A stretch of DNA of 64,000 nucleotides from Alphaproteobacteria bacterium. Lineage in GTDB: Bacteria > Pseudomonadota > Alphaproteobacteria > Rs-D84. Location: contig JAFVSL010000005.1 of assembly GCA_017503725.1 (NCBI GenBank), forward strand, positions 15,455 to 79,454, given 5' to 3'. The position numbers and the translations under genes were made by a program. Below are positions 2,803 through 35,959 of this stretch, piece after piece. Within the stretch, counting starts at the first letter, position 1, and every line of letters starts with the position of its first letter. The notes under the pieces were generated by a model. That model was not told where the DNA came from. It searched no databases and worked only from the letters and a program-made list of their open reading frames with translations.

Positions 2803-3120
2803 ATGAAAAAAATATTATCAGCATTTATAATTTTATGCACAACGGTTGGCCTTGCCTCTGCGTACCAGGTTATGTCTTCGCGCGAACTGGGCAAAAGCGA
2901 TGCAAAAAATCAAAATATTGTTGTAAAATGCACAACCCCCGCTGGCAAGGTTTCAAATCAAACCTGTTCATTGCGCAGGTATGCAAAATGCACCGGCACG
3001 GGCACAAACAAAAAATGTACCGGCTGGCAACCGTGGAAAGATTTACGAAACCCATCCAAACAGTATTCAGATTGGAAGGCGGCCGCATCCGCGTGCTGTC
3101 GTGAAAAGGGCCTAAGATAA
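2803..3120 (+). CDS. Small secreted Cys-rich protein, 105 aa, signal peptide MKKILSAFIILCTTVGLASA
   Basis: ATG at 2803 preceded by AAGGACGG. Eight Cys residues. Followed by a hairpin terminator. Confidence 0.5.
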   Translation: MKKILSAFIILCTTVGLASAYQVMSSRELGKSDAKNQNIVVKCTTPAGKVSNQTCSLRRYAKCTGTGTNKKCTGWQPWKDLRNPSKQYSDWKAAASACCREKGLR

Positions 3121-3148
3121 AAAATCCCGCCGGATGGCGGGATTTTTC
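3121..3148. terminator. Bidirectional rho-independent terminator hairpin (aaaaatcccgccggatggcgggattttt)
   Basis: Perfect GC-rich inverted repeat flanked by A-run and T-run. The same hairpin family recurs at about 4470-4500, 8905-8935, 15186-15215, 19697-19727, 28605-28632, 34608-34633, 35927-35958 and 57652-57685. Confidence 0.8.
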
Positions 3149-3628
3149 TTAGTTGTTCATTGCACACGGTTCGGTAAATTCATATGTGCCGGGTGCGTCT
3201 GTAAATGATACGCCCGCCGGCGCGTACATTATGCAATCCCCCGCGGGATTTGATACCAAACACGATTCTGCCACCCCCACAGATACCATTCCAGACGGGC
3301 ACGTCGTCGCAATTGTGATTTGCGGTTCATCAATCGCAATATACCCCGATGGGCAATCTGTGGCGGGGCCATTATCCAAAACACACACACCGGCATCGCA
3401 TTTTAACCCACTGGCACAGGGTGGCACACCGGTGTAAACCGTCAGTGTGCTACTGGTACAGGTCTGGCCCAGTGTTGCCGCCGCCACACAGGTTGCCATT
3501 GATAGACCACTCGTTCGCAAACATACCCCAGAATCACATTGCGTACTGTATAAACAACTTTGACCATTTGCGAGCCCTGCAATCGCGGGTAACGGCATCA
3601 GTATAAACAAAAACATAATTCGTTTCAT
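3149..3628 (-). CDS. Family-A secreted Cys-rich protein, copy A1. Conserved C-terminal block CPSGYIAIDEPQITIATTCPSG...AESCLVS.PAG.CIMYAPAGVSFTD.PGTYEFTEPCAM.
   Basis: Signal peptide MKRIMFLFILMPLPAIAG. RBS AAGGTG. Paralogous to the ORFs at 24884..25156 and 34633..35118. Confidence 0.65.
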   Translation of the reverse strand: MKRIMFLFILMPLPAIAGLANGQSCLYSTQCDSGVCLRTSGLSMATCVAAATLGQTCTSSTLTVYTGVPPCASGLKCDAGVCVLDNGPATDCPSGYIAIDEPQITIATTCPSGMVSVGVAESCLVSNPAGDCIMYAPAGVSFTDAPGTYEFTEPCAMNN

Positions 3629-3637
3629 AGCAACACC

Positions 3638-4045
3638 TTAGTTGGACACAGTTGTAAACAGTGCGGACCGGAATTCGGCATCATCTCTAACAAGCTCTGC
3701 ACAAGCGAGTGAACAATTAGTAGCGCAAATGTAATCGTCATTGTCTTCAAAATTAGAGCTGAACCAGGATGAGACCGCTGGGCTAATCATACGACACCAG
3801 CAATAGTAACCTCCGCCATAATTTAAAAGTGTGTCTGATGTTTCTTTTACTGCCCCGGACGTACCAGTGCACAGTCCAATTCCTTTTATAGTTATATTGG
3901 AAGATTTTAGCGTCCATTCTGAATACTCGTAATCGTCGATATAAAAGTCGTTGTTATTCTCTGATAGCGCGACGCATCGTTGTACGGCCGTCGCGGGTGC
4001 GGCGAGTATCGCGCCAACCGCGGTTAAAGTTAAAAGTTTTTTCAT
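3638..4045 (-). CDS. Family-B secreted Cys-rich protein, copy B1. Signal peptide MKKLLTLTAVGAILAAPATA. Conserved YYCWCRM..P..SSW motif and C-terminal Cys framework.
   Basis: Start taken at the internal ATG 4045 with RBS AAGGAG 7 nt upstream. The six-frame ORF extends to 4093. Paralogs at 24412, 35566, 16461 and 15967. Confidence 0.65.
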   Translation of the reverse strand: MKKLLTLTAVGAILAAPATAVQRCVALSENNNDFYIDDYEYSEWTLKSSNITIKGIGLCTGTSGAVKETSDTLLNYGGGYYCWCRMISPAVSSWFSSNFEDNDDYICATNCSLACAELVRDDAEFRSALFTTVSN

Positions 4046-4205
4046 TTGTTCAATCTCCTTTCTTTGTTTTATTCGCGAAAAAACAAAAACCACCGAATAA
4101 ATTCAAGTGGTCAGGAGGTTAACGACAATCTAATAGAATTGTGCTGTTTATTCAATATATTCACAGCCCCCCTGACTTTTATATTCAGGAGTTGTCTTAT
4201 TCGAT
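4046..4205 (-). promoter_or_regulatory. Conserved ~150-nt 5' leader of the B/A cassette, copy L1. Mutually exclusive pairings CTCCTGA / GTCAGGRGG / CCTCCTGAC, a downstream hairpin plus T-run, then the RBS.
   Basis: Highly similar sequence sits upstream of B2 (24262-24411), B3 (35567-35722) and B4 (16486-16625), always in the same orientation relative to the gene. Confidence 0.6.
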
Positions 4206-4503
4206 ATTAAATCGAAAACTATTAGCACGGGTCGTTACACCCCATTATGGTAAAAACACCATAACAACTACATTATAACGGATTGTTTCCATTTGCGCAA
4301 TTGCAATGATAAATAAAAATTTAGTGGTGAGCCGTAAGTGGCTAGTGGATAGTGTTTGTGTGCGGCAAATGCCGCACATTATAGTGCCATCACTAACCAC
4401 TAATCACTAAGATAAACTTTTATTTATCTTAGCGTTTTCATATCACATATCTCTTGTCTCATATCTCATAAAAAATCCCGCCGGATGGCGGGATTTTTTA
4501 TCT

Positions 4504-15214: not shown

Positions 15215-15967
15215 TCATTCGTTACACGGCGCGCTGTACAGATATGTACCAACGTCATCAGAATATACATTCCCCGCGCGCGAATAAAGCCAACACGTCC
15301 CCAGGCCAGCATCACTTAGATGCGTTACTTCTTCGCACGCTGGCGCCGTCCCCAAACTCGCCTTACACGTTCCGTATGACGACGCGTCATAGTCCCTAAA
15401 AATCAAGCCCTGGCGTTCAATTGCAAGCCCACCAAGTCCAGACGGCGCCTCGTCTGGGAACATCTGGTCTTCTATGTCACTGCCACGATATGTCATCCAT
15501 TTGTTCATTTCTGTAAAAAGATACATACCAAGAGTTTGCTTCTCTAATATGCTAGCTTTGCACGCATATGCGCAATTATACATACATGAATCCAAATCAG
15601 CGCTTGTATCCGCCCCCGTTTTTTCTGGAAACCACTGTGTCGCATATGGGCGTATCATTTTACACCAACAATAATTACCCGTTTGTGTGGGCGCCGCAAG
15701 ATGTTTCGCAAATGTACTCATACTTGTGAATCTCGTCGACGAACACGCTGAAATTATTCTGGCATCTGTAAGATATGTATTTACAGAACCAGCAACCGTG
15801 AAACTATGATGCGACGGCCAAATCGATGCTCCAACTGTATAAGTGTCATTTGCCGTCCAACCAAATGCCGTATTCCCAAGAAAATCGGACCCAATTGACA
15901 CTTGGGTAATCGATGCCGCAAATGCGGGTTCTAATACCAACATATATAATATAAATATTTTCTTCAT
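15215..15967 (-). CDS. Family-B secreted Cys-rich protein, long variant, copy B5 (NYCWCKMIRP...W motif)
   Basis: Signal peptide MKKIFILYMLVLEPAFAAS. Contains the YCWCKM motif. Lies immediately downstream of B4 in a tandem arrangement. Confidence 0.6.
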   Translation of the reverse strand: MKKIFILYMLVLEPAFAASITQVSIGSDFLGNTAFGWTANDTYTVGASIWPSHHSFTVAGSVNTYLTDARIISACSSTRFTSMSTFAKHLAAPTQTGNYCWCKMIRPYATQWFPEKTGADTSADLDSCMYNCAYACKASILEKQTLGMYLFTEMNKWMTYRGSDIEDQMFPDEAPSGLGGLAIERQGLIFRDYDASSYGTCKASLGTAPACEEVTHLSDAGLGTCWLYSRAGNVYSDDVGTYLYSAPCNE

Positions 15968-15987: not shown

Positions 15988-16461
15988 TTAAAACGCCTCA
16001 AACGCACCAAAAATCTTGCCACGAAAATCTGATGATGTTACCATATAGCTTGCACAATCACGCGCACAATTTGTCACACACTCCAACGCCGAAGTATAAA
16101 GAGTATTAGCCGGCAATCTAACATAACTAGATAAAACTGGTTCGGTCATCTGGCACCAACAATACTTATGCACACCACCCGTCGCGTTTTTCAATGGTCC
16201 CACCGACGGAGACCCCGAAGCCACCGTTGAACAATGTCCATACATCATAACCGCAACATTTTCGCCCGTATAGGGCAGTGTGCATACCACCCCATGTTTA
16301 TACGCGTATTGGCTAAAATACGAATATGCACTTGAATGCACACACGTTGTTTGCGACGCCAGATCTGCTCTGAACGGTGAACAAATATATGACCGCGTTG
16401 GCGTGGCAGCATTCGCAGACAAAACGCCCCCAATTAAACAAAAACATAAAAATCTTTTCAT
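15988..16461 (-). CDS. Family-B secreted Cys-rich protein, copy B4 (KYCWCQMTEP..SSY motif)
   Basis: Start at the ATG 16461 (MKRFLCFCLIGGVLSANA) with RBS AGGAGAAAGG. Preceded by conserved leader copy L4. Confidence 0.6.
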   Translation of the reverse strand: MKRFLCFCLIGGVLSANAATPTRSYICSPFRADLASQTTCVHSSAYSYFSQYAYKHGVVCTLPYTGENVAVMMYGHCSTVASGSPSVGPLKNATGGVHKYCWCQMTEPVLSSYVRLPANTLYTSALECVTNCARDCASYMVTSSDFRGKIFGAFEAF

Positions 16462-16485: not shown

Positions 16486-16625
16486 TCCAACGCACCCGCG
16501 TCAGATAATCAAAAACCACCATTCATCAGGTGGTCAGGAGGTTGGAAACAATCATCGGAATTGTGTCGCTTATTCAATATATTCGCAACCCTCCTGACGA
16601 CAAATATCAGGAGTTTAAATTTACC
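16486..16625 (-). promoter_or_regulatory. Conserved B-cassette leader, copy L4
   Basis: Contains AACTCCTGA...GTCAGGAGGGTTGCGAATATATTGAATAAGC...AACCTCCTGACC in the mRNA sense. Confidence 0.55.
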
Positions 16626-16807
16626 GTCCGCAAGACAGATATCCATTGCGAACGCCGATGCACGGGTTTCCACACCCCATTATGACAAAAACCGCCATAA
16701 CAAGTATATTATAGCGAATTCTTTCAACTTAGGCAAATACTAAGATAAGTAAAAATTATGTCCCGAAAAATAAAAAATTTTGTAAATAATCCACCCGGCG
16801 GGATTTT

Positions 16808-22269: not shown

Positions 22270-22440
22270 GGACATAGTGATGTGGCTTTGGCTTAGAACA
22301 CCAAAACATTGAACGAAATGGCTACCACTTTATGTCCCGACCAAGCGGTCGGGATGTCGTTGCTCGCAAGACAACGAGGTCATCAATGTTTGACTGTTCT
22401 AACTCCCGACCACCACTTGCTATGGTGGTTTTTTTATTAC
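22270..22440 (+). promoter_or_regulatory. Structured leader upstream of the PAP2 phosphatase gene. Several hairpins ending in a strong intrinsic terminator (ACCACCA-CTTGCTA-TGGTGGT plus T7). Alternative pairing of GGTCGGGAT with two TCCCGACC copies.
   Basis: Read directly. GTCCCGACC-aagc-GGTCGGGAT is a perfect hairpin. A second TCCCGACC overlaps the 5' arm of the terminator. The terminator ends about 20 nt before the RBS. Confidence 0.5.
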
Positions 22441-22459
22441 AATCGAAAGGAAAGAAAAT

Positions 22460-23014
22460 ATGTCAAGACTTAGAACTCTTGTCGCGTTTTCTGTTTGCGG
22501 GGCATTGACCGCAAATGGTGCAATTGCGGGTGGACCTTTTTCATTTTCCAACCCGAATAAACTAAGCGATACATTTATGGTGATGACGGTGGCATACGCC
22601 CTGGGGCTAAGCAGTACCGAAGATAACTTTGACGGTGCCATTGAATTAGCCACCAGTATTGCCGGTGCCCAGATAGTTGCCGAAGGTATCAAGGCCCTTG
22701 AACTGGAACGCCGCCCGAATGGTTCCGATTGGAAATCATTCCCCAGTGGTCATTCCGCCGCCGCATTCAGCAGCGCAATGTTCGTCCACCGTCGTTACGG
22801 ATGGAAACCGGCAATTATACCATACGCAATGGCCGCGGTAACTGGTTGGGGCCGGGTACGTGCCGACGCGCACTATTGGCACGACGTCCTGGGCGGGGCG
22901 GCAGTATCTGCACTTTTTACCTGGATTGTTGTGGATAAATATGACGTGGCACAAAATATTACAGTTGCTGCCACCCCCGATAACATCCACGTCGGGTTCA
23001 AGACAGAATTTTAA
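22460..23014 (+). CDS. PAP2 superfamily phosphatase, secreted or membrane-associated
   Basis: Signature motifs KxxxxxxRP (ELERRPNG), PSGH (FPSGHS) and SRxxxxxHxxxD (RVRADAHYWHDV). Signal peptide present. Confidence 0.8.
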   Translation: MSRLRTLVAFSVCGALTANGAIAGGPFSFSNPNKLSDTFMVMTVAYALGLSSTEDNFDGAIELATSIAGAQIVAEGIKALELERRPNGSDWKSFPSGHSAAAFSSAMFVHRRYGWKPAIIPYAMAAVTGWGRVRADAHYWHDVLGGAAVSALFTWIVVDKYDVAQNITVAATPDNIHVGFKTEF

Positions 23015-23806: not shown

Positions 23807-24058
23807 ATGAGCAAAACAATCACATGTAACGGATGCAACAAATGCTGCGCACTTGGTGCAACACCTGTAAAAAACAACTATGTACTGGATATAGAAAAGC
23901 AATATTATATCCCAACCATTAACGGCGAAATTATCACCGCCTATATCGAAAACGGCGAACAGAAAAATATCAATCTGTGCGAAACTGTCGAAAAGGCGAT
24001 TGAAGCAGCCCAGCGGGTTTCTTGCTTCTGTTGTTATCATACACAAAATGTGAAATAG
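23807..24058 (+). CDS. Small Cys-rich hypothetical protein, 83 aa (CNGCNKCC ... CFCCYH)
   Basis: RBS AAAAGGATAAA upstream of the ATG. Nine Cys residues. Confidence 0.4.
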   Translation: MSKTITCNGCNKCCALGATPVKNNYVLDIEKQYYIPTINGEIITAYIENGEQKNINLCETVEKAIEAAQRVSCFCCYHTQNVK

Positions 24059-24261
24059 GGGGCCCACCACCAAAATCCACACCGCCCATCCAGGCGGTGT
24101 TATTATTTATTTTTATTATTGTATTTTTTCTCTATACATTTTATAATCACGGTGTCAGCGGGATTTTCCACTGATGGGGTGTCAGAACCCGTACATAACG
24201 CGTTTGGAATCGAAATCCAGCGCGCCATTGGCGTGTTTTTTTCGTATCTGTCCAAACGATA

Positions 24262-24411
24262 AATAAAACTCCTGAACACATAGGTGTCAGGAGGGTTGCG
24301 AATATATTGAATAAGCACACAATTCGTTATGATTGTTCTGAACCTCCTGACCACTCGTTTATGCGCGGTGGTTTTTGTTTTTTCGCGAAAAACAATGAAA
24401 GGAGATTGAAT
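24262..24411 (+). promoter_or_regulatory. Conserved B-cassette leader, copy L2
   Basis: aaaactcctgaacacataggtgtcaggagggttgcgaatatattgaataagcacacaattcgttatgattgttctgaacctcctgaccactcgtttatgcgcggtggtttttgttttttcgcgaaaaacaatgaaaggag, then ATG. Confidence 0.6.
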
Positions 24412-24873
24412 ATGAAAAAACTTTTAATCTTAACCGCGCTTGGTGCGATTTTGACCGCGCCCGCAATGGCGGTACAAAAATGCGTACAGTTGCCCACAAA
24501 AGGCTCAGGTTGTTCTTTTAGCAGCAGCTCTTTCAGCATTGAAATACCCATAAGCTGCAGTGCTGCTGGGATATCTATGAAGGCTATAGCGTTGTGTGCT
24601 TCTGCTTATGCTGACAAAGGAGGCGTCGTATCAGCAGGCTTAGTCGCAAACACAATAGATGGGGAAACTATGTCTTATGGTCCCTACTATTGTTGGTGCA
24701 AACTTGTTCAGCCAGTTGAATCAAAGTGGGTATTGGCTTCTAGTACAAGCAACGACGAATTCAGTTCCTGTTCTTATTCCTGCTCCCAAAAATGCGCCGA
24801 AGCGATGCGGGCCCCTAAAGATGTTGAACTTGATATCTGGCCAATAATGCTGGAAAATTTATTAGTTGATTAA
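24412..24873 (+). CDS. Family-B secreted Cys-rich protein, copy B2 (PYYCWCKLVQP.ESKW)
   Basis: Start at ATG 24412 (MKKLLILTALGAILTAPAMA) with RBS AAAGGAG. Confidence 0.65.
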   Translation: MKKLLILTALGAILTAPAMAVQKCVQLPTKGSGCSFSSSSFSIEIPISCSAAGISMKAIALCASAYADKGGVVSAGLVANTIDGETMSYGPYYCWCKLVQPVESKWVLASSTSNDEFSSCSYSCSQKCAEAMRAPKDVELDIWPIMLENLLVD

Positions 24874-24883
24874 GGTGGCGGAT

Positions 24884-25156
24884 ATGAAACGAATTATATT
24901 TTTATTGTTGTGTATGCCAGGGTTGGCGCACGCCGCCGCCCCCAGTACCACTTGTCCATCTGGATACATCGCCATAAACGAACCTGCCATTACAATTGCA
25001 ACCACGTGCCCCAGTGGCACAATTTCGGTTGGCACGGCGGAATCGTGTTTGGTGGAAAGTCCCGCGGGGGATTGTATAATGTACGCGCCGGCGGGTGTCA
25101 GTTACACCGACAGTCCCGGCACATATGAATTTACCGAACCGTGCGCAATGCAGTAA
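24884..25156 (+). CDS. Family-A secreted Cys-rich protein, copy A2, short form of 90 aa
   Basis: MKRIIFLLLCMPGLAHA signal peptide, then the conserved block CPSGYIAINEPAITIATTCPSG. RBS AAGGTGGCGG. Terminator at 25157-25185. Confidence 0.65.
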   Translation: MKRIIFLLLCMPGLAHAAAPSTTCPSGYIAINEPAITIATTCPSGTISVGTAESCLVESPAGDCIMYAPAGVSYTDSPGTYEFTEPCAMQ

Positions 25157-25185: not shown

Positions 25186-25953
25186 AGGCAGGAACAGGGC
25201 CTATCCCCCCCCTGGATACAGTATTCTTGTCACATATCTCATTTCTCACAAAAATCCCCCAACCCGGGGGATTTTTTGCAATTTTTACCGCCCCGCCGAC
25301 CGTTTTTCGCCCGCAAACCCGCAGAAATCCGCCATTTTTCGCATTTTTAGCACCAGAATAGGGGGCAAAACCCCAATTTTCGGCCATTTTTGACATTTTC
25401 ACCATACAAATCCACCCGTTATCCAAACATCAAAAAAAAACATAAATCGGATACAAAAAAGTACTTAAAAAAGTATTTTAATAAAAAACACTTAAATTTA
25501 TTTATAAATCTATAAACAAAATGATATTTTTATTATTTAATAAATAATTTTAATTTTTTCCGCAACAAAACACGCATCGCACCACAGACAAAAAAACAGA
25601 TCGATTTTCATCGCGCCGGGCACAGAATTATACGTCACAAAATTATCATCGCCACCAGAATCAAACAACATCACACCAGGGCCACACAAACACACCAATC
25701 GCGCCACAGGGCGCAGAATTCCGCCAATCACACAATTATACGTTCATCGCGCCGAGAATCGATTAAGGCATATACCACCAACACACACCAAGCGGAATAA
25801 CACCCGCCATAATCGCAATCATCGGCCCCAGGACAGACATAAATCGGCATAATTATCGGATATTATGCATACACACGCACATTTCCGCTATTCTTCTATA
25901 CCAAACTATACATAATATAAATTATGCGCCTTTTATATATCACTGTCAACCTA
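25186..25953. other. About 770 bp of non-coding AT-rich DNA with direct-repeat motifs (ATCGCGCC x3, ACA[GC]AATTATACGT x2, CCATTTTT x several), an AT-rich tract of about 130 bp at 25430-25560, and one near-DnaA-box TTATCCAAA
   Basis: No ORF with RBS spans the region. Repeats read directly from the sequence. Confidence 0.4.
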
Positions 25954-34632: not shown

Positions 34633-35118
34633 TTATGACATTGGACACGCACCTGTAAATTCATACGTGCCTAGTGTGTCTGTAAATGATACGCCCGCCG
34701 GCGCATACATTATACACGACCCCGCGGGACTGGATACCAAACACGATTCCGCCGTACCAATGGCGGTTGTGCCACTGGGGCAATTGGTCGCGATGGTGAT
34801 TTGTTCTTCATTTATTGCAATGTAACCTGATGGACAGGTATCTATTGCATTACAAAGACCGTTTTGACATATCAAACCACTGGCACAAGGTTTTTCCGTA
34901 TCAAGATAATAACCTATATCTCCTACTTTTGTTCTACAGGATTCTCCAAGGACGGCGGGCGCTGCACAATACCTCAATAATTCGCCACTTTTTTGTGAAC
35001 ATACCAGCGATGCGCAATCTCTGTTCGCTATGCACTGTTCACCATTGGCCAGTTCGCCTTGTGCAGCCGCATACGCGACAATCGGTACAAGCATCAATAA
35101 AAATATCAATCGTTTCAT
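34633..35118 (-). CDS. Family-A secreted Cys-rich protein, copy A3
   Basis: Start at ATG 35118 (MKRLIFLLMLVPIVAYA) with RBS AAGGGG. Carries the conserved block CPSGYIAINEEQITIATNCPSG. Confidence 0.65.
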   Translation of the reverse strand: MKRLIFLLMLVPIVAYAAAQGELANGEQCIANRDCASLVCSQKSGELLRYCAAPAVLGESCRTKVGDIGYYLDTEKPCASGLICQNGLCNAIDTCPSGYIAINEEQITIATNCPSGTTAIGTAESCLVSSPAGSCIMYAPAGVSFTDTLGTYEFTGACPMS

Positions 35119-35128
35119 TCGCACCCCC

Positions 35129-35566
35129 TTAATTGGCCAATGAACCAAACAGCGCGGACCGGCACTCGGAAACGCTCTGGGCGTAGTACGCACAGCTGTA
35201 CGAACAGGAGTACACGCAAAAACTGGCGGACGAAACCGCGCCGAGATACACCCAAGACGACACGGCCGGCTCGACCATTTTGCACCAGCAATATTTATTG
35301 GTCGTATCCGATGAGTCGCTTACCGTTGTAATTGCATCCGATGTGCCATATGTTGCGTCCGCTTTTTGATTTGAGCACATCGCAATTCCCTTAATCGGGA
35401 CACTGGTACCATTCGTTGTACACGTCGCGGACCAATCCGCATTCCCCGCCGTCGGTGTCGATGTACATGTCGTGCTTGATGCGTCCAGCGCCACGCATTT
35501 CTGGACGGCGGTGGCGGGTGTGGCGAGTATCGCACCAATCGCGGTTATTGTTAAAAGTTTTTTCAT
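35129..35566 (-). CDS. Family-B secreted Cys-rich protein, copy B3 (NKYCWCKMVEPAVSSW)
   Basis: Signal peptide MKKLLTITAIGAILATPATA. RBS AAAGGGAG. Confidence 0.65.
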   Translation of the reverse strand: MKKLLTITAIGAILATPATAVQKCVALDASSTTCTSTPTAGNADWSATCTTNGTSVPIKGIAMCSNQKADATYGTSDAITTVSDSSDTTNKYCWCKMVEPAVSSWVYLGAVSSASFCVYSCSYSCAYYAQSVSECRSALFGSLAN

Positions 35567-35722
35567 CTGTTTACTCCCTTTCTTTTGTTTTATTCGCGAA
35601 AAAAAACAAAAACCACGCGCATAAACGAGTGGTCAGGAGGTTAGTAACAATTATAAGGAATTGTGTGCTTATTCAACATATTCGCAACCCTCCTGACACC
35701 TATATGTTCAGGAGTTTTTATT
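35567..35722 (-). promoter_or_regulatory. Conserved B-cassette leader, copy L3
   Basis: Near-identical to L2 in the mRNA sense, including the U-run hairpin (cactcgtttatgcgcgtggtttttgtttttttt). Confidence 0.6.
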
Positions 35723-35959
35723 TGTCATTTGGATTTCATACGAAAAAACACGCCATATGGCGCGCCCGGTTCAGGATCTTTCGTTGTTTTATCCAGACGC
35801 CTTATATCGGGTTACTACACCCCATTACAACCATCGGTTATAACAAACAAATTATAACCAAATATTTCATCAAACGCAACGACGAAGATAAATAATTATG
35901 TATTCCTCCACTAACCACTTACACTAATCACTAAAAAATCCCGCCGAATGGCGGGATTT

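Follow-up and report, generated by a model that had tools for sequence, protein, structure and literature searches.

We analysed a 64,000-nucleotide (nt) stretch of DNA, hereafter the window, from an Alphaproteobacteria bacterium of the order Rs-D84 (assembly GCA_017503725.1, contig JAFVSL010000005.1, positions 15,455 to 79,454 of the forward strand). At several places in the window a conserved leader precedes genes for two families of exported, cysteine-rich proteins, which we call B and A. One such unit was first placed at positions 3149-4205. A 29-nt core of the leader, GTCAGGRGGGYTGYGAATATRTTGAATAA, has exactly four copies in the window, at 4148-4176, 16570-16598 and 35669-35697 on the minus strand and at 24286-24314 on the plus strand. 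The number expected by chance is 0. The components of the four units, numbered as used below, are as follows.

4272-4300, minus strand: predicted promoter of unit 1; -35 TTGCGC (4300-4295), 17-nt spacer, -10 TATAAT (4277-4272).
4075-4265, minus strand: predicted leader RNA of unit 1; covariance-model matches of 184.9 and 150.2 bits; the unconstrained minimum-energy fold contains the same helices and the terminator.
3638-4045, minus strand: gene for B1, 135 amino acids, with a signal peptide, YCWCRM..P..S.W and then CxC ... CxxxC; identical to P0002, a hypothetical protein of an Alphaproteobacteria metagenome-assembled genome (MAG).
3149-3628, minus strand: gene for A1, a 159-amino-acid long form with an N-terminal colipase-N-like cysteine domain and the A core; PF01114 matches residues 18-51 at 28.8 bits (cut-off 27), a short cysteine pattern of ~34 residues only.
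3120-3147, no strand assigned: palindromic intrinsic terminator ending unit 1; 12-base-pair stem, then a T-run.
24119-24147, plus strand: predicted promoter of unit 2; TTGTAT, 17-nt spacer, TATAAT.
24155-24386, plus strand: predicted leader RNA of unit 2; 200.1 bits; extra terminator-like hairpin in the variable arm.
24412-24873, plus strand: gene for B2, 153 amino acids, family B.
24884-25156, plus strand: gene for A2 (P0091), a 90-amino-acid short form consisting of signal peptide and core.
25250-25276, plus strand: terminator after unit 2.
35851-35879, minus strand: predicted promoter of unit 3; TTGCGT, 17-nt spacer, TATAAT.
35598-35844, minus strand: predicted leader RNA of unit 3; 181.2 bits.
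35129-35566, minus strand: gene for B3, 145 amino acids, family B; the protein modelled by AlphaFold2, with a predicted local distance difference test score (pLDDT) of 85.9.
34633-35118, minus strand: gene for A3 (P0092), a 161-amino-acid long form.
16708-16736, minus strand: predicted promoter of unit 4; TTGCCT, 17-nt spacer, TATAAT.
16501-16699, minus strand: predicted leader RNA of unit 4; 198.4 bits.
15988-16461, minus strand: gene for B4, a divergent family B member (YCWCQM).
15215-15967, minus strand: gene for a B5-A fusion of 250 amino acids, with an N-terminal B domain and a C-terminal A core assigned by profile matches.

In units 1 to 3 the gene order is leader, B, A, with 9-10 nt between the B stop and the A start. 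Unit 1 has its 5′ limit at ~4265, or ~4300 if the promoter is included. An earlier note on this DNA had proposed that the unit recurs at several loci. The listing of open reading frames (ORFs), alignment and the four exact copies of the core bear this out for all four. Some details of that note have to be revised. The leader, given there as ~150 nt, measures ~190-250 nt from the predicted start site to the terminator U-tract, with a promoter upstream. Two tandem B genes had been described in unit 4. There, the leader is followed by B4 and then by the fusion, with a B-profile match over residues 68-152 (98.3%, E 2.4e-14) and an A-profile match over residues 179-249 (92.1%, E 6.3e-7). The window total of five B domains is therefore as claimed, but there are four A domains, not three, once the fusion is counted. 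The supposedly invariant B core, YCWC[KRQ]M..P..S.W, also varies. B1 and B4 have YCWCRM and YCWCQM, B2 has YCWCKL, and B5 has ..T.W in place of ..S.W.

At the DNA level, the only repeats in the window are the leader, the A core and the ~75 nt at the start of B that encode its signal-peptide region. The leaders of units 2 and 3 (L2 and L3) share 90% identity over 119 nt, as had been estimated. In DNA comparisons within the window, similarity between B genes was undetectable past the signal-peptide region. The flanks are housekeeping genes that differ from site to site: tRNA-Val and an M23 peptidase; XerC; TlyA; RlmE and RNase HI. Because the flanking genes are different at each site and are not repeated, segmental duplication is ruled out as the origin of the copies. 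They are independent cassettes, as the earlier note had suspected, and probably autonomous transcription units. Three more leader-B-A cassettes were found on contigs with B proteins identical to those carrying IKB05 locus tags, from the same MAG as the window's B. Their contexts are trigger factor, exonuclease VII and thioredoxin-reductase-like/DnaJ genes. One further B-A pair on the traced contigs lacks a canonical leader.

The window's B and A proteins match, exactly or almost exactly, hypothetical proteins from MAGs of uncultured 'Alphaproteobacteria bacterium'. The SIG48 MAG (locus tags IKB05_) contains near-identical leader loci, and a 'Candidatus Enterousia' MAG is among the more distant relatives with B genes. 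Candidatus Enterousia belongs to the order Rs-D84, whose uncultured members are described as genome-reduced and probably partner-dependent, with genomes of ~0.7-1.6 Mb (PMC12306168).

We folded the four leaders jointly. The result was a long-range helix, P1, in which GGGGU-g-UNNNNAC pairs with GUNNNNA-ACCUCC. Among the paralogues, covariation at its four variable positions is perfect. The same fold contains a P2 hairpin (CUCCUGA/UCAGGAG), a short stem, P3, that closes a conserved 15-nt loop (G-AAUAUAUUGAAUAA), and a further hairpin with a U-tract after it. The unit 1 leader comprises a P0 hairpin, P1, a variable arm, P2, P3 with its loop, P4 and the terminator GACCAC..GGUGGUUUUUGUUUUUU. At gathering thresholds, a search of the whole window with Rfam (4227 families) detected only six tRNAs. 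A permissive Rfam scan of two leaders (E<=10) returned only chance-level matches to small nucleolar RNAs, microRNAs and small RNAs, far under threshold. Full-text literature searches with RNA and protein motif strings gave only unrelated primer matches. The leader RNA has apparently not been described before.

Scanning metagenomes with a degenerate pattern of the core identified at least 120 stretches, and several of the contigs are labelled human gut. The pattern also matches five viral contigs in IMG/VR. In the fetched gut metagenome loci, a covariance model made from the four window copies only produced at least 100 matches in 91 sources, nearly all full-length. Covariation was measured in 94 distinct sequences. 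In the first model 96.8% of cells were paired, compared with 45-57% for slid partners, and 24 of 29 pairs changed on both sides; the extended model gave 97.3%, 44-59% and 27 of 32; these paired percentages for the model helices, and the conservation of the P3 loop, are inflated, since the alignment had been fitted to the model itself and most of the loop is prescribed by the retrieval pattern. None of 500 shuffles attained the observed values. Because of this fitting, features outside the model are the more telling evidence. Four covary. One is the local 5′ hairpin described below, and the others are the P4 hairpin, a tertiary or pseudoknot pair (c15-c227; UA 48, CG 27) and P0. The last is a conserved hairpin of 8 base pairs with a GNNUU pentaloop, right at the predicted start site; it is 74.6% paired, against 44-50% for slid partners, with 4-6 pair types per position. 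A G-U pair (c12-c287) is kept in 64 sequences, which points to the sense-strand RNA as the one that folds. The comparisons indicate that the leader is a widespread family of structured RNAs, in line with the earlier proposal of selection on the element itself.

Each window unit has a predicted promoter of the sigma-70 type. A scripted search found a perfect TATAAT 33-35 nt upstream of P1, and a TTGnnn -35 at 17-nt spacing, in all four. The best -10 match falls 32-35 nt upstream of P1 in 47 of 84 family members. From the position of the -10, the predicted start site is the first base of P0. A simple promoter scan missed the leader promoters, whose -35 is TTGCnn. An invertible promoter was considered and rejected, since the P1 arms do not enclose the promoter. 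About 10 nt upstream of the -35 there is an A/T-rich block, TTATTTATC (e.g. 4304-4320), which is kept in units 1, 3 and 4 and looser in unit 2. It is a possible UP element or operator.

Part of the leader can pair in two ways. Briefly, segment X′ consists of the P2 3′ strand and the next bases (e.g. GUUGGAGG) and is complementary to two other segments. The first, X1, is the P2 5′ strand. The second, X2, is the P1 3′ strand plus the first bases of the terminator stem (e.g. CCUCCAAC). Complementarity of X′ and X2, scored for the three bases after CCUCC against the P2 3′ strand, is kept in 69 of 71 sequences (shuffled mean 39, maximum 51). The variable triplet changes in concert at three places: AAC/GUU/AAC, UGA/UCA/UGA and UGY/GCA/UGC. 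One of the top pairs by mutual information, c171-c293 (UA 49, CG 23), belongs to the X′-X2 helix. A local 5′ hairpin, joining the GGG of the P1 5′ strand to a downstream CCC, covaries as well (c12-c28; GC 54, AU 15, GU 13). So does the terminator stem, after which comes the U-tract. Both folds, which we call T and A, leave an evolutionary trace in the form of covariation. In RNAfold, fold T is the minimum-energy structure of all four window leaders. When forced, fold A is 3-10 kcal/mol less stable and the terminator stem is disrupted, only partly so in L3.

We read the leader as a transcription-attenuation switch with a putative effector. It is a 5′ leader on the sense strand between promoter and ORF, its secondary structure has compensatory changes, and its terminator is mutually exclusive with a helix that shares a sensor-domain strand. 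ORF starts preceded by a Shine-Dalgarno sequence lie a median of ~17 nt beyond the model match. Hence, control is most likely at transcription termination. The proposed sequence of events is as follows. Transcription from the sigma-70-type promoter would start at P0. The next ~170-230 nt would fold into a multi-helix RNA, with P1 to P4 and the conserved 15-nt loop. In fold T, which would comprise P0, P1, P2, P3 and the terminator, 5′ GGGG..NNNNAC pairs with the distal GUNNNNA-ACCUCC (P1) and CUCCnnn pairs with nnnGGAG (P2). The GACCAC..GGUGG stem and the U-tract would then act as an intrinsic terminator and the operon would be off. In fold A, nnnGGAGG(G)UU instead pairs with AACCUCCnnn, that is, the P1 3′ strand and the first terminator bases, and the 5′ GGG closes the local hairpin with CCC. 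With P0, this hairpin and the X′-X2 helix in place, the terminator would be blocked and RNA polymerase could enter the genes. An effector (metabolite, second messenger, protein or RNA) would set the balance between the folds. The leader would thus work like a transcription-terminating riboswitch or attenuator and, in the window, control an operon for two Sec-exported, disulfide-rich proteins, B and A.

The parallels with terminating (OFF-type) riboswitches and attenuators are several. The leader occupies the 5′ untranslated region between promoter and first gene. A long-range P1 closes its conserved multi-helix domain, the P1 3′ strand is shared with the anti-terminator, the terminator follows directly, and tandem copies occur. 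Unlike known riboswitches, it matches none of the 4227 Rfam families, its genes encode surface or secreted, XRE and prophage proteins and no metabolic pathway, and the promoter and 5′ hairpin are conserved within the module. The logic of the predicted switch is known; the architecture appears new and was previously unannotated.

The family has internal variety. A model rebuilt from 100 sequences uncovered a fifth, divergent leader-like element in the window (22283-22443, plus strand; 35.5 bits, E 7e-7). In this element P1, the terminator and the three-way P2/X2 complementarity (UCCCGACC / GGUCGGGA / CUCCCGACC) are all retained, and the P3 loop is different. Downstream is a signal-peptide gene (22460-23014) with weak LpxE/PAP2 similarity. 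A similar variant occurs in a metagenomic locus (L007:653-870). Sub-classes of the leader with different loops may exist. Another locus (L022:171-1009, plus strand) has a tandem array of four complete promoter-leader-terminator units, spaced ~205 nt apart and lacking intervening ORFs. Units 3 and 4 of this array have altered P3 loops, and a gene (84 amino acids) follows only the last unit. L2 (24219-24237, plus strand) has an insert resembling an intrinsic terminator, a GC-rich hairpin followed by U7, and L3 has a matching one (within 35598-35830, minus strand). The insert sits in the variable arm, inside the sensor domain and upstream of P2.

Elsewhere, the first genes downstream of the leader are of several types. 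They include signal-peptide proteins, many of them cysteine-rich (B, A and others), proteins with Listeria-Bacteroides repeats, a YadA-anchor protein, a trypsin-like protease and a Bro-N protein. Many encode XRE-type helix-turn-helix proteins of ~75 amino acids; among 60 scanned, 11 had HTH_31, four HTH_3 and four HTH_19. In the viral contigs (L131-L135) the leader adjoins tail and lysis-type phage genes. Directly downstream of it is a Rha-like regulator (identified by eye), a secreted protein or a transporter-like gene. Several operons per genome would be under one portable promoter-leader module, which suggests one global signal. Neither these gene types, the terminator/anti-terminator logic nor the B-A fusion featured in the earlier note.

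Family B is a large unannotated domain family, as profile searches show. There are 90 close homologues, all unannotated, and an exhaustive search found 1768 cluster representatives (50% identity) at E<=1e-3, of which 847 are at E<=1e-10. Searches of Pfam, NCBIfam, PHROGs, PADLOC and Protein Data Bank sequences returned nothing for B or for the A core. The B signal peptides end ..PATA/VQ[KR]C and those of A end ..AxA, both of the signal peptidase I type. Lipoproteins and type IV pilins were rejected as identities, as A and B have no lipobox, prepilin motif or hidden Markov model match; the Pfam comparison called for by the earlier note accordingly placed them in no such family. Some giant and mid-sized proteins (755-6218 residues) contain 4-7 tandem B domains: P0211 (4750 amino acids), P0213 (6218 amino acids), P0212, P0214, P0231 and P0279. 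In P0211 these are joined by five Listeria-Bacteroides (Flg_new) repeats and, at the C-terminus, an endonuclease I domain.

The AlphaFold2 model of B3, a confident one (pLDDT 85.9; predicted template modelling score 0.77), has five strands followed by two C-terminal helices. It has no structural relative among solved structures. The invariant cysteines form CxC on a predicted strand (C93, C95) and CxxxC on the first predicted helix (C121, C125). In the cysteine-stabilised alpha/beta motif of defensins and scorpion toxins, CxC/CxxxC spacing staples helix to strand, and B resembles this motif in having CxC on a strand and CxxxC on a helix. Unlike that motif, B has the reverse order (CxC first), a larger domain and a five-stranded sheet. 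Disulfides between CxC and CxxxC would probably staple the B helix to the sheet, in the reversed order.

In relatives, B is associated with a mechanism for generating diversity. In locus L004 (2980-5372), a complete diversity-generating retroelement lies 3′ of a B-family gene. After the last B gene come a 133-nt copy of that gene's 3′ end, a 116-amino-acid accessory ORF and a reverse transcriptase (RVT_1, E 1.2e-16). The variable repeat is at 3315-3447 and the template repeat at 3633-3765, and nine of nine mismatches fall at template adenines. The same holds for nine of nine mismatches in L005 (2863-3699) and 16 of 19 in L077 (3144-5238), where a reverse transcriptase and accessory gene are also present. 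The reverse transcriptase has IGNLTSQ, which we take to be a signature of retroelement enzymes of this class. The pattern of repeats in the three loci has the hallmark of a diversity-generating retroelement, judged from the mismatches. The C-terminal 40-45 residues of B are diversified, with variable residues in the cysteine-rich helix. All three operons are headed by the same leader as in the window. This arrangement parallels that of Mtd, TvpA and other retroelement variable proteins: the B 3′ end is the variable repeat, the differences from the downstream template repeat are at adenines, and an accessory gene and reverse transcriptase follow. A C-type-lectin (or immunoglobulin-like) fold was considered for B and is not what the model has. 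On the strength of that model, B appears to be a retroelement target on a new, non-C-type-lectin scaffold. In the window, diversity is supplied by paralogues. Their mature regions have diverged beyond recognition in DNA, while leader, signal peptide and A stay similar.

In the three retroelement-carrying operons, the first gene after the leader encodes a third secreted family of ~320 amino acids, with three cysteine modules containing CPxGxY (L004:1516-2472, L005:1351-2325 and L077:1323-2294). The module recalls the N-terminal half of the A core.

Family A has 169 homologues, mostly of 90 amino acids, consisting of a signal peptide and a core of ~70 residues with six cysteines. They share 50-80% identity and several occur per MAG. 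Long forms have an extra N-terminal cysteine domain with a marginal colipase-N match. For PF01114 the match is precomputed for five A homologues, whereas A2 and A3 gave none. Any resemblance of the extension to the colipase N-terminal/Dickkopf-type domain is marginal in score. Unlike PF01114 proteins, A is bacterial, its match covers ~34 residues of cysteine pattern, and the A core matches nothing. Profile-profile comparison of A with B aligned only the signal peptides, and homology was undetected. A is probably a physical partner of B, to judge from gene arrangement. In four more loci outside the window, A follows B at ~10-13 nt. The 250-amino-acid fusion ORF recurs in locus L009, and cluster P0007, also of 250 amino acids, has 10 member sequences. 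Because the genes are tightly adjacent in every cassette and a natural fusion exists, A and B would act together.

The best explanation of these data, which we hold with moderate confidence, is an autonomous unit in which a leader with two alternative folds switches an operon encoding B, a binding module, and A, its partner. We infer with it control of termination in vivo, an effector, disulfides, a binding function and a B-A interaction. Several points weigh against this explanation, besides the fitted alignment already described. Fold A is thermodynamically less favourable than fold T, and therefore a kinetic or factor-driven mechanism must be assumed. A simple scan for terminators overlooked the one in the leader, probably owing to an outer loop longer than the 8 nt that the scan allows. 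The tandem units of L022, without ORFs, fit a stand-alone small RNA as well as a cis-acting leader. The genes downstream are highly varied and therefore indicate no single metabolite. For the B-A interaction, the basis is gene adjacency and one fusion, and the AlphaFold model of the A core has a pLDDT of 30-50. The 64 kb of the window contain no reverse transcriptase, accessory gene, template repeat or second copy of any B 3′ end, so the retroelement link of the window's B proteins is one of homology.

A different account keeps the terminator and changes the means of escaping it. The leader could be a docking site for a protein antiterminator (of the lambda N/boxB, LoaP or RfaH type) or for a small RNA, after which the terminator would be ignored. 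The binding site would be the P0 pentaloop hairpin or the 15-nt P3 loop. Since the default computed fold is the terminated one, a positive factor would be needed, and the conserved P0, 8 base pairs with a GNNUU pentaloop at the predicted start site, would suit this role. The protein-based antitermination systems known so far act on regulons made up of surface or secreted proteins, regulators and prophage genes. Such is the regulon here, with surface and secreted proteins, XRE regulators and Bro-N and Rha-like prophage genes. However, both alternative folds covary, which processive antitermination does not require, and no candidate factor gene is consistently linked to the leader. We regard this account as possible but rather unlikely.

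The element might also be a family of stand-alone, trans-acting small RNA genes, whose place upstream of other genes is incidental or secondary. Every copy has its own promoter and terminator, and the long A/U-rich conserved loop could be a seed region. The four tandem copies of L022 can be taken in this way; they fit stacked switches, and also fit a small-RNA role for the terminated leader. Against it, 74 distinct cases among 100 matches (some cut by contig ends) have a same-strand ORF with a Shine-Dalgarno sequence within 120 nt. At a median distance of ~17 nt from match to ORF start, there is little room for a separate downstream promoter. The anti-terminator pairing makes sense only if read-through matters. 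The core pattern that contains the loop, allowing up to three mismatches on either strand of the window, occurs only in the four leaders, and no complementary target was found. A purely trans-acting role is unlikely.

Other functions can be proposed for the proteins. B and A could be a secreted toxin or bacteriocin with its helper, or proteins of the periplasm in which the CWC motif serves redox chemistry or metal binding. Like many bacteriocins and defensin-like peptides they are small, cysteine-rich, exported by signal peptide, multi-copy and variable, and the CxC...CxxxC spacing recalls the defensin motif. However, B is a retroelement target in relatives, and to our knowledge the known targets of diversity-generating retroelements are binding proteins. 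In addition, 4-7 copies of B occur in giant proteins with Listeria-Bacteroides surface repeats. No immunity-like gene without a signal peptide accompanies the B-A pair, either in the window units or in four more loci. We think a toxin or redox function improbable. Because B is a retroelement target in relatives and is repeated in giant surface proteins, a role in binding or adhesion is favoured over a toxin. B is most likely a ligand- or cell-binding module, as far as its homologues can tell. The earlier proposal of secreted effectors or adhesins is sharpened accordingly.

Finally, the repeat could act as DNA, as a recombination site of the attC or invertase kind, or be a recent duplication or gene conversion of no regulatory meaning. 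The attC inverse-core/core consensus is RYYYAAC/GTTRRRY, which the P2 arms of most family members (CTCCAAC...GTTGGAG) resemble, and a XerC-type recombinase gene lies just upstream of unit 4. We consider this reading highly improbable, and rejected an integron cassette, since the window copies have CTCCTGA/TCAGGAG and do not conserve AAC/GTT, and conserved G-U pairs are confined to one strand. The element precedes genes instead of following them and brings its own promoter and terminator, and its copies are scattered in both orientations among housekeeping genes. The neighbouring recombinase scores as XerC (280 bits) and far below integron-integrase cut-offs. Covariation that spans upwards of 90 diverged sequences rules out recent duplication as the reason for the conservation.

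The two-fold switch controlling B and A can be set in a wider frame. Cyclic di-GMP riboswitches sit upstream of adhesins, surface proteins, regulators and phage genes. In its gene associations only, the leader resembles them (GEMM-I/II), as its regulon is of the same kind. Unlike GEMM-I/II, it gives no GEMM match in the permissive Rfam scan and has a different architecture. A bolder proposal, tentative and on balance doubtful, is that the leader represents a new class of riboswitch, common among gut Alphaproteobacteria that have reduced genomes and depend on partners, and among their prophages. It would detect a small molecule signalling the condition of the host or partner. In response, it would set at once the surface-binding repertoire, including the retroelement-diversified, non-lectin, disulfide-stapled B, and XRE regulators that act downstream.

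The leader gives ligand searches a defined RNA to work with, one for which over 100 sequences and a two-state model are available. A and B are two large families absent from domain databases. If the structural model is right, the very few folds used by diversity-generating retroelements would be joined by a further one, the small non-C-type-lectin scaffold of B. Such a scaffold, if true, bears on the understanding of retroelements and on binder engineering. The system also bears on gene regulation and partner attachment in Rs-D84 bacteria, which are thought to live off other cells (PMC12306168).

Three further features of the window were noted. An ORF of 83 amino acids (23807-24058, plus strand), cysteine-rich and starting MSKTITCNGCNKCC, adjoins unit 2 and was assigned to no NCBIfam family. 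Another, of ~105 amino acids (2803-3120, plus strand), is convergent on unit 1; it has a signal peptide, is cysteine-rich and was assigned to no Pfam family. At 103-350 on the plus strand, within the ORF at 124-849, a 12-nt tandem repeat of ~20 copies encodes a low-complexity (GGSG)n linker.

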